Shown in pieces: positions 2,790-6,566 of a stretch of DNA of 64,000 nt. The stretch lies in the NCBI RefSeq assembly GCF_041248615.1, contig NZ_CP158426.1; one strand, written 5' to 3'. The DNA comes from Escherichia coli (GTDB lineage: Bacteria; Pseudomonadota; Gammaproteobacteria; Enterobacterales; Enterobacteriaceae). Within the stretch, counting starts at the first letter, position 1, and each line of letters starts with the position of its first letter. Position numbers and translations under genes: made by a program. The notes beneath the pieces are model-generated. The model searched no databases. It saw only the letters and a program-made list of their open reading frames with translations, and had not been told where the DNA came from.

Positions 2790-3155
2790 GTCGACAGGGA
2801 GTCAGACAACGAAGTGAACATCAGGATGATGACACTTCTGAAGGACACACCAGGATGGTGTTTCAGGGAAAGGCTTCTGGATGAAGCGAAGAGGATGACG
2901 CAGGACGCGTTAAAGGACACCTCCAGGATGGAGAATGAGAACCGGTCAGGATGATTCGGTGGGTCAGGAAGGCCAGGGACACTTCAGGATGAAGTATCAC
3001 ATCGGGGTGGTGTGAGCAGGAAGCAATAGTTCAGGATGAACGATTGGCCGCAAGGCCAGAGGAAAAGTTGTCAAGGATGAGCAGGGAGCAACAAAAGTAG
3101 CTGGAATGCTGCGAAACGAACCGGGAGCACTGTGAATACAGTGCTCCCTTTTTTT
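2790..3155 (+). ncRNA. csrB: CsrB small RNA (CsrA-sequestering), 5' end approximate
   Basis: About 365 nt with many repeated CAGGATG / AGGA(U)G GGA motifs; ends in hairpin 3123-3148 plus T7 run 3149-3155; located between syd and yqcC. Confidence 0.85.
3123..3155 (+). terminator. Intrinsic terminator of csrB
   Basis: 11-bp stem GGGAGCACTGT/ACAGTGCTCCC, loop GAAT, followed by TTTTTTT. Confidence 0.8.
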
Positions 3156-3200
3156 ATTCCTGCTATCCTTCGCGGCAGTTTTTCTTATTGAGGTTGCTTT

Positions 3201-4329: not shown

Positions 4330-4779
4330 ATGGCGGAAATTGGTATTTTTGTCGGCACTATGTACGGAAATTCGCTGTTAGTGGCGGAAGAAGCGGAAGC
4401 AATTCTGACCGCGCAGGGCCACAAAGCAACGGTATTTGAAGATCCTGAATTAAGCGACTGGCTGCCCTATCAGGATAAGTATGTTCTGGTGGTTACGTCC
4501 ACGACCGGGCAGGGCGACCTTCCTGATAGCATTGTGCCGCTCTTTCAGGGAATCAAAGATACCCTGGGCTTCCAGCCGAATCTGCGTTATGGCGTGATTG
4601 CGCTCGGCGACAGTAGTTATGTGAATTTCTGCAATGGCGGCAAACAGTTCGATGCCTTGTTGCAGGAACAGAGCGCTCAGCGGGTTGGCGAAATGCTGTT
4701 GATTGACGCCAGTGAGAACCCGGAACCGGAAACGGAATCAAATCCGTGGGTCGAACATTGGGGCACGCTGTTGTCCTGA
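4330..4779 (+). CDS. yqcA: Flavodoxin-like protein YqcA
   Basis: 149-aa ORF with flavodoxin-like N-terminus ([12 protein letters not shown]). Confidence 0.8.
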
Positions 4780-4833
4780 TATGTTCAGCGAGCGGTAAAT
4801 GCCGTTTTAGCGGTGCTGAATCGAATCTTTTCA

Positions 4834-4886
4834 GGCAAATGCCAGTAAAAACTGCTTCATAGCGCGGATTTTTACTGGCGTTTGCC
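4834..4886 (+). other. Long imperfect hairpin (18-bp arms) downstream of yqcA; possible terminator or regulatory structure
   Basis: GGCAAATGCCAGTAAAAA ... TTTTTACTGGCGTTTGCC, one mismatch, 17-nt loop; no U-run follows. Confidence 0.4.
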
Positions 4887-5213
4887 TGGAGTCAAGCGAT
4901 CCATTTCATACTCTTCTTTATTTCTTCGTTTTAACCCTTCCTTTCTTGTTCTTGTTTTCATTTCCGTGAAGTGGATTCCACCGTCCAGGGCTAATGCCAA
5001 AATCGGGCCTCATTGAACGCATTAATGTTGTGTTGTTGCACGGTGAGCCGCTATGGCGCGCTTTTTATACTGCTATTGCCAGATATAAACACGCGCCGTA
5101 TTCGGCGAACGACCTATAAAAACGGCAAAAAACACCCTACGTCACCTCTGATTTCCTGGCGATGTCGCAGTCCAGAGTGAGCGTGGCTAACGCGAATTTT
5201 CAGGAGTGCAACA

Positions 5214-6566
5214 ATGAGTTCTTTAAGTCAGGCTGCGAGCAGTGTGGAAAAACGCACAAATGCTCGTTACTGGATAGTGGTGATGTTGTTTATCGTCACA
5301 TCCTTCAACTACGGCGACCGCGCTACGCTCTCTATCGCCGGTTCGGAAATGGCCAAAGATATCGGCCTTGATCCTGTGGGAATGGGCTATGTGTTCTCTG
5401 CCTTCTCATGGGCTTATGTTATCGGGCAGATCCCTGGTGGTTGGTTGCTGGATCGTTTTGGTTCAAAACGCGTCTACTTCTGGTCGATCTTTATCTGGTC
5501 GATGTTTACCTTGCTGCAAGGCTTCGTCGATATCTTTAGTGGATTCGGCATTATCGTTGCCCTGTTTACTCTGCGCTTCCTGGTCGGGCTTGCTGAAGCG
5601 CCATCTTTCCCCGGCAACAGTCGCATTGTTGCGGCCTGGTTTCCGGCGCAGGAAAGGGGAACGGCGGTGTCGATTTTTAACTCCGCTCAATACTTCGCAA
5701 CGGTGATCTTCGCGCCGATTATGGGCTGGCTGACGCATGAAGTGGGCTGGTCACACGTCTTCTTCTTTATGGGCGGTCTGGGGATTGTCATCAGCTTTAT
5801 CTGGTTGAAAGTCATCCACGAGCCAAATCAACATCCGGGGGTAAATCAGAAAGAGCTGGAGTACATCGCCGCGGGTGGCGCGCTGATCAATATGGATCAG
5901 CAAAACACCAAAGTTAAAGTGCCGTTCAGCGTGAAGTGGGGGCAGATCAAACAGTTGCTCGGGTCACGGATGATGATCGGCGTTTATATCGGTCAGTACT
6001 GTATCAACGCCCTGACTTACTTTTTCATTACCTGGTTTCCGGTTTATCTGGTGCAGGCGCGTGGGATGTCGATTCTGAAAGCGGGCTTTGTGGCTTCCGT
6101 TCCGGCGGTTTGCGGTTTTATCGGCGGTGTGCTGGGTGGGATTATTTCCGACTGGCTGATGCGCCGCACGGGATCGCTGAACATTGCGCGTAAAACACCG
6201 ATCGTAATGGGCATGTTGCTGTCGATGGTGATGGTGTTCTGCAACTACGTCAACGTTGAGTGGATGATCATCGGCTTTATGGCGCTGGCCTTCTTCGGTA
6301 AGGGCATCGGGGCGCTGGGTTGGGCAGTAATGGCAGATACCGCGCCAAAAGAGATCAGCGGTCTTTCCGGTGGCCTGTTCAACATGTTCGGTAACATTTC
6401 TGGCATCGTCACGCCAATCGCAATTGGTTATATCGTTGGCACGACTGGCTCCTTTAATGGGGCGCTGATTTATGTTGGTGTTCATGCCTTAATCGCGGTA
6501 CTGAGCTACCTGGTGCTGGTGGGCGATATCAAGCGTATCGAGCTGAAACCTGTCGCGGGGCAATAA
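5214..6566 (+). CDS. gudP: MFS transporter, glucarate/galactarate permease GudP
   Basis: 450-aa hydrophobic ORF; first gene of gudP-gudX-gudD arrangement. Confidence 0.85.

Follow-up and report, generated by a model that had tools for sequence, protein, structure and literature searches.

Rho-dependent terminators in which a stem-loop protects the 3′ end of the transcript were reportedly put forward as a hypothesis by Peters and colleagues in 2012. In the arrangement described by Dar & Sorek (2018; PMC6061677), Rho-dependent transcripts carry a stable stem-loop without a U tail, with a Rho utilisation (rut) region immediately downstream, and terminators are suggested to be able to switch type by losing or changing their U content. 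The sequence features of rut regions have been expressed as thresholds, namely a C>G bubble of ~80 bp or more and an area of ~700 %*bp (Nadiras et al. 2018; PMC6144790); known Rho terminators have bubbles of ~80 nt or more together with a [(YC)N9-13] chain of at least 4, and all tested templates with a bubble of >78 bp or an area of >700 terminated in vitro (PMC6144790). At the genome scale, RNA coverage with and without bicyclomycin has been compared in 800-nt windows (Adams et al. 2021; PMC7815308).

Here we describe the yqcA–gudP intergenic region of Escherichia coli, which lies in a 64,000-nt stretch of DNA (hereafter the window; positions are counted from its first letter, and the MG1655 coordinate is 2,927,314 minus the window position, the locus being on the minus strand in MG1655). 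Open reading frames and Rfam place csrB (2799–3158), yqcC, truC, yqcA (4330–4779), gudP (5214–6566), gudX and gudD all on the plus strand; yqcA ends at 4779 and gudP starts at 5214, leaving a spacer of 434 bp (4780–5213). Of 5426 complete E. coli genomes, 5422 match at least 80% of this spacer; it is at least 99% identical in 5398 of the 5425 with a match, and complete E. coli genomes carry no annotated feature within it. The segment 4822–4975, which comprises a long hairpin followed by a pyrimidine tract, is single-copy (5426 places in 5425 genomes), and an origin as a dispersed repeat (REP/BIME, ERIC and similar) was therefore rejected.

The layout of the segment resembles the arrangement of Dar & Sorek in that a stem-loop without a U tail is followed by a C>G, YC-rich and weakly structured region, and in that read-through at the locus is bicyclomycin-sensitive. 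It differs in that the hairpin is unusually long (27 bp), in that no precise steady-state 3′ end has been reported at the hairpin, and in that the putative rut region overlaps the upstream regulatory DNA of the next operon, where length, and not sequence, is kept. We regard the element as an uncharacterised example of a well-known class, probably a Rho terminator with a protective stem-loop laid over promoter-upstream DNA.

Composition of the pyrimidine tract

The tract (4901–4966) contains T 37, C 18, A 7 and G 4, the fourth G being located at 4966. The preliminary description of a C/T-rich stretch with three G residues is borne out as regards pyrimidine richness, whilst the G count becomes four once position 4966 is included. 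A 65-nt window at 4900–4964 holds 55 pyrimidines, more than any other of that length on either strand of the 64 kb; the next-best 65-nt windows have 49 pyrimidines or, counted as purines, 51, with 53 marking the 99.99th percentile. Under a binomial model ~0.001 such windows are expected per 64 kb, and the maximum over 100 Markov-simulated sequences of 64 kb is 51. Calling the tract C-rich, as was originally done, overstates its composition because C content is about average (27%); the tract is T-rich (56%) and G-poor (6%). In this respect it is unlike classical rut sites (lambda tR1, trp t′; the model of PMC6144790), its skew arising from G depletion and not from C enrichment, although bubble length, area and a [(YC)N9-13]n≥4 chain are features that it shares with them.

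In 78-nt sliding windows with starts at 4834–4957, a C>G bubble on the plus strand (4834–5034) extends over 124 nt, with an area of 1063 %*bp and a maximum C−G of 13. With 16 YC dimers in 67 nt the tract ranks among the top 0.5% of windows, and its [(YC)N9-13] chain is 6 long, a length reached by only 3 of 954 windows; by raw C-minus-G it stands only in the top ~4%. Its mean unpaired probability is 0.53–0.54, compared with 0.38 for the region, and it is untranslated, lying 3′ of the yqcA stop codon and containing no conserved reading frame. In bubble length, area, YC chain and low structure the tract lies within the published sequence criteria for rut sites. A further C>G bubble is present in the gudP leader (window starts 5036–5136), with a length of 101 nt, an area of 758 %*bp and a YC chain of 2. 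At the heart of the tract (in whole 4900–4965) is a 41-nt spacer (4914–4954, plus strand), 85% pyrimidine with 3 G residues, which is proposed to act as a rut site on the RNA and as a linker of constrained length on the DNA.

We lean towards a model in which the hairpin and the tract together form the 3′ end module of the yqcC–truC–yqcA transcript, working as a Rho-dependent terminator, and, with about the same modest confidence, we favour the tract as the main site of Rho entry. According to this model, RNA polymerase would pass the hairpin, the full stem of which is without a U tail; the unstructured, G-poor and YC-rich RNA from ~4892–4975 would load Rho, which would free the transcript within the next 100–250 nt, before or within the gudP promoter and leader; and 3′-to-5′ exonucleases would then trim the RNA back to the 27-bp hairpin, which would shield the mRNA and appears to constitute its steady-state 3′ end. 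The outcome would be the insulation of gudPXD, which would be on its own activator-dependent promoter, from read-through. If correct, this means that an activator-dependent catabolic operon is kept silent behind a co-oriented, constitutively transcribed operon that lacks an intrinsic terminator. The same DNA would have a second role, as a 41–42 bp linker that separates two conserved boxes upstream of gudP, both resembling protein-binding sites; two such roles would constrain one short segment separately, in composition on the RNA and in length on the DNA.

Conserved boxes upstream of gudP and the spacing between them

Eighty Enterobacteriaceae loci from different species were compared after anchoring on YqcA. 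Most of them retain yqcA next to gudP, the two being separated by 278–515 bp. Box 1 (GTCAAGCGAtCcaTTTCAtACTC; 4891–4913) forms the 5′ edge of the tract and has invariant C, A, G, G, A and A, A columns; the alignment of this interval (window 4891–4913) gives GTCAAGCGAyC..TTTCAyACTC as its general form. Box 3 (TTTTCATTTCCGTGAAG; 4955–4971) forms the 3′ edge of the tract, with a core, TTyCGTGAA, that is present in all genera examined. Box 4 (AATGTTGTGTTGTTGCACGGTGAG; 5024–5047) overlaps the −35 position, is a candidate activator (CdaR) site, and includes the word TGCACGGTGAG (5037–5047), which is invariant across the genera aligned. The predicted −10 hexamer of gudP, TATACT (5067–5072, plus strand), is likewise invariant in all genera, and GTGAGA-17-TATACT was scored as promoter-like by scan in Citrobacter and Superficieibacter. 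From this sequence evidence, transcription of gudP likely starts near 5080 (MG1655 ~2,922,234), so that the tract would lie between about −115 and −180 and would not be part of the gudP mRNA.

Boxes 3 and 4 are invariably exactly 81 bp apart, and TATACT follows box 4 at 27–28 bp; box 1b lies 52–53 bp from box 3 in every genus with both, with ~42 bp in Leclercia and RIT714. The arrangement from box 3 to the gudP ATG is universal among the loci aligned and continues as a conserved leader up to the start codon. Box 1 occurs with or without the hairpin in other genera and goes with the gudP side; in the alignment, box 1 and the spacer that follows it are absent from Enterobacter, the C. freundii group and some others. 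Sugar-operon promoters such as those of araBAD and melAB have distant upstream sites at fixed spacing, and the gudP boxes are comparable in their rigid placement upstream of an activator-dependent −10; unlike the araBAD and melAB sites, boxes 1 and 3 are putative protein sites, recognised by their sequence conservation.

That the yqcA–gudP spacer is large was rightly remarked in the preliminary description, although a terminator is not the main cause. Since its modules are mostly conserved DNA of the gudP side, the size is accounted for mainly by ~330 bp comprising the gudP leader and the regulatory DNA upstream of it.

The core of box 1 (AGCGA-N6-TCAyA; 4895–4910) reads AGCGA-N6-TCATA here and AGCGA-N6-TCACA in most genera. 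The CRP core is TGTGA-N6-TCACA, and the box 1 core resembles such a pair of half-sites, making it a candidate only. Its centre is ~177 bp upstream of the predicted gudP start. A scan also found a promoter-like site on the minus strand, TTGACT-16-AAAAAT (4895–4868), the expected start of which is 41.5 bp from that centre; Adams et al. (PMC7815308) list neither a 3′ end nor a Rho region antisense to yqcA.

Box 3, here taken as TTTCATTTCCGTGAAG, has a look-alike, TTTCATTTATGCCGTAACG, in the garP–garD intergenic region. TTGCAC-containing words related to box 4 are present upstream of cdaR and in the garP–garD region; GCATTTGCACAATG stands upstream of cdaR and recurs on the other strand of the garP–garD spacer, the corresponding stretch of gudP box 4 reading TGTTGCACGGTG (5033–5047). 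The shared-motif sites are at ~4969–4987 and ~5034–5047 in locus L082 and at ~1903–1916 in locus L083. These look-alikes of boxes 3 and 4 are candidate CdaR sites and may be motifs shared by a regulon. A sigma-54 reading of TTGCACGG was rejected on inspection, there being neither the GG of a −24 element nor a −12 TTGC.

In Enterobacter and the Citrobacter freundii group (L010, L018, L025, L033, L039 and others) a REP-like palindrome, GCCGGGTCAGGCGAAGCCGCCACCCGGC, takes the place of hairpin, box 1 and spacer within the first ~60 nt after yqcA. E. albertii (L016, 3448–3500) is without the gud operon or any part of the spacer; downstream of its yqcA stands a different hairpin, GCCCTCTGA-TAA-TCAGAGGGC, beyond which the sequence matches neither the spacer nor gudP.

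In 33 of 35 loci, drawn from many genera, the tract-core spacer measures 41–42 nt (43 in one); in the other two, Leclercia and one relative, it is one helical turn shorter, at 31 nt. Its sequence is unalignable between genera. Pyrimidine content is 83–85% in Escherichia, higher only in Leclercia (87%), and 52–83% in other genera; across the related loci the spacer averages 32% C and 15% G. C exceeds G just upstream of box 3 in all 58 loci with a full 78-nt window before the end of box 3, these loci being related by descent, and the C>G bubble is at least 80 nt long in 57 of the 58, with the conserved boxes supplying part of the skew. The skew holds although sequences and even modules differ among the 58 loci. 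Six spacer sites vary within Escherichia; five of them are C/T exchanges and at none does a G arise, which is weak evidence because transitions are common anyway. Conservation across Enterobacteriaceae, suggested earlier as a check on the tract, is thus confined to length and C>G skew, the sequence not being kept outside Escherichia; that length is kept and sequence is not would be explained by a role for the DNA as a linker between two boxes.

These observations bear on an alternative in which the tract is a DNA spacer only. It would be a sequence-free linker of box 1 (CRP-like) and box 3 within an upstream activating region of gudPXD, its length serving helical phasing or looping and its pyrimidines reflecting drift or DNA flexibility, with the Rho signal arising elsewhere, for example in the gudP leader. 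The rigid box distances across genera, the unalignable sequence with its 52–87% range of pyrimidine content, and the association of box 1 with the gudP side and not with the hairpin are in keeping with it. The conserved length, with a 10-bp shorter form in two taxa, points to a constraint at the DNA level for which no RNA function is needed, and weighs against the Rho-terminator model, as do the many genera that are without box 1 and spacer altogether. Against a spacer-only tract, the same-sign, G-poor C>G asymmetry in 58 of 58 loci would be left unexplained, as would the pyrimidine-rich spacer in the genus that lacks both U-tailed hairpins (see below) and the effect of bicyclomycin at the locus. 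We consider a spacer-only tract a possibility of the second rank; a DNA spacer function is in any case compatible with the Rho-terminator model, the two not being exclusive.

Bicyclomycin-sensitive read-through at the locus

Supplementary file 2 of Adams et al. (PMC7815308) contains a Rho termination region at 2,922,118 on the minus strand, classed as orphan, the peak of which corresponds to position 5196 on the plus strand of the window, inside the spacer and 18 nt before the gudP ATG. Without bicyclomycin there are 114 reads upstream and 23 downstream of this coordinate, and with bicyclomycin 112 and 90, respectively, giving a Rho score of 3.98 (p = 9.05e-08; PMC7815308). Upstream reads are steady and downstream reads rise to ~80% of the upstream value, as read-through from yqcA would predict. 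A bicyclomycin-sensitive boundary exists at the locus according to these published data, which apply to the locus and not specifically to the tract: the resolution is ~±800 nt, the coordinates being described by the authors as regions and not as termination sites (PMC7815308), and the peak is ~230 nt downstream of the tract, beside the C>G region of the gudP leader. Because of the 800-nt windows and this displacement, a rut role for the tract is something that we infer, and the Rho reading is partly supported by published data, at the level of the locus and not resolved to the tract. The current view of Rho is unchanged, the signal at the locus having already been present, uncharacterised, in a published table.

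The comparison of 3′ ends with and without bicyclomycin, which had been envisaged as a further check, gives a divided answer in the published data, with a Rho region in the spacer and no listed Term-seq 3′ end. The curated Term-seq lists of Adams et al., covering three growth conditions, have no 3′ end in the spacer (MG1655 2,922,1xx–2,922,5xx) of this weakly expressed operon (~114 reads per 800 nt), and the missing end could follow from that low expression; in the same tables csrB (positive control) was found, and yqcA and gudP are never named. The locus is not mentioned in the SMRT-Cappable-seq supplements, and a literature search on yqcA or gudP with Rho, bicyclomycin, CRP or promoter found nothing specific. 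The original suggestion of a Rho-dependent terminator that insulates yqcA from gudP is partly supported, by the signal at the locus, the rut criteria and the layout, but not as regards assignment to the tract, a listed 3′ end or C-richness.

The published peak is located at the 3′ edge of the leader C>G bubble (101 nt, 758 %*bp), which raises the alternative that the gudP leader is the target of Rho: RNA initiated at the gudP promoter would be ended early, in the 5′ UTR or early ORF, via the C>G region at ~5075–5175 and the leader stem, and the tract would be irrelevant to Rho. The conserved leader stem, with its covariation, suggests control at the RNA level. The YC chain of the leader bubble is only 2, however, known terminators having at least 4; the cells were grown in LB with no glucarate, a medium in which a promoter that depends on an activator should be almost inactive; and the downstream reads with bicyclomycin (90) level off just below those upstream (112), as read-through predicts. 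Bicyclomycin could also raise gudP expression indirectly. On balance termination within the leader seems unlikely, and we infer that Rho enters at the tract rather than at the gudP leader.

The leader stem itself pairs 5146–5150 with 5173–5177, with flanks UCA...UGA (~5141–5181), and its commonest form is UCAUUCUGA...UCAGAAUGA. Compensatory changes are seen among 68 distinct sequences, one pair being UA in 52 and CG in 14, and another UA in 64 and GC in 3. The stem adjoins the published Rho peak and may be an RNA control element of gudPXD.

The hairpin and its relatives in other genera

The hairpin (4829–4891, plus strand) is predicted by RNAfold to have 27 pairs, one bulge and an 8-nt loop; the 18-bp arms reported initially (4834–4886) are real and contained in this 27-bp helix. 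Its core arms, 4832–4851 and 4869–4888, are complementary over 20 nt, with one position forming a G–U pair in the plus-strand RNA only. The folding energy is −40.3 kcal/mol, whereas shuffled sequences average −17.1 (z = −7.7) and none of 200 folds as well; the minus strand, at −31.7 kcal/mol, is 8.6 kcal/mol worse. The claim that the hairpin has no U-run is correct for the sequence after the full stem (GAGUCAAGCG), but a U5 run (4869–4873, plus strand) is present within the 3′ arm, directly after a 4-bp apical stem. At −3.9 kcal/mol this apical stem is among the weakest in the 8 genera tested. A consensus terminator scan made no call on the E. coli hairpin. An intrinsic terminator is defined by a G+C-rich stem (≥5 bp) leading directly into ~7–8 nt rich in U, a combination that this hairpin lacks.

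The inner stem is kept across genera, with 71% of cells paired compared with 29–49% in slid controls, as counted for the E. coli structure on a MAFFT alignment of the hairpin region; RNAalifold predicted no structure on the same raw alignment. A compensatory change is seen in columns 49–81 (CG 6, AU 5, UA 3). In Citrobacter, Salmonella and others the homologous stem is followed by GTTTTCAT. The basal 5–6 pairs are Escherichia-specific: TTTGCCTGGA replaces TTTTCATAGG and pairs with the upstream CAGGCAAA. The hairpin derives from an older, terminator-like stem, the 3′ U-run of which was turned into extra stem in Escherichia, and we propose that it now serves as an exonuclease-blocking 3′ stem-loop on the truC–yqcA transcript. 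Another hairpin, CCCTCCC...GGGAGGG, often with a T-run, stands directly after the yqcA stop in most long-spacer genera, and Escherichia is without it. Escherichia is the group that lacks both this first hairpin and a U-run after the second, and its spacer is among the most pyrimidine-rich.

Intrinsic termination at the hairpin, possibly bidirectional, with the tract incidental, is suggested by the layout of A-run, stem and U-run, and by the homologues in other genera, in which the stem is followed by the U-run given above and at which the scan calls terminator-like sites. As in bidirectional intrinsic terminators, the ancestral form would have had an A-run, a short G+C stem and a U-run, and the inner stem covaries across genera; unlike them, the Escherichia apical stem is 4 bp and the U-run has become 5–6 base pairs. 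With only the 4-bp, −3.9 kcal/mol stem before U5 and nothing U-rich after the full stem, no scan call, no 3′ end in the curated Term-seq lists, and ~80% of the upstream signal continuing into gudP with bicyclomycin, we judge a working intrinsic terminator in E. coli to be improbable.

In terms of the Rho-dependent model, Escherichia appears to have shifted from intrinsic to Rho-dependent termination, and its comparison with Citrobacter and Salmonella displays the loss of U content that is predicted for terminator switching by Dar & Sorek. More speculatively, and with doubt outweighing confidence, the tract may be at once a length-constrained DNA spacer that phases two regulator sites and the RNA site of Rho entry, the switch from intrinsic to Rho-dependent termination in Escherichia having taken place by hairpin loss, U-run-to-stem conversion and pyrimidine enrichment. 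If true, the locus would be a clean comparative case of a terminator changing type within Enterobacteriaceae, and a dated, sequence-resolved example of the switching proposed by Dar & Sorek.

Readings of the segment as a small RNA, as a small ORF or as H-DNA (a triplex-forming tract) are very improbable: a perfect 15-nt mirror repeat, CTTCTTTATTTCTTC, at 4913–4927 would suit H-DNA but is short and interrupted; the short ORFs that run across the tract, one of 42 aa on the minus strand and one of 44 aa on the plus strand, were rejected, no reading frame being kept because the spacer sequence is unalignable between genera and its length varies by 1 nt; and the regulatory leader or sRNA first entertained finds no Rfam family here or in 7 related loci and no listed 3′ end, the tract lying upstream of the conserved −10 box. 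In the Rfam search CsrB (2799–3158) was the sole match in the window region, with none at E ≤ 1 in the spacer of E. coli or in those of 7 other genera.

In E. coli EC6563 (L084, NZ_CP095856.1, 3001–3157) gudPXD is missing, and the gene next after yqcA is barA, which lies on the opposite strand; similarity to the spacer stops at query position 157 (window ~4936), inside the pyrimidine tract. In E. coli 2014C-4135 (H32, NZ_CP027310.1) the hairpin and tract segment is found in two places, the break being near query position 67 (window ~4888), at the 3′ base of the hairpin, which suggests an insertion.
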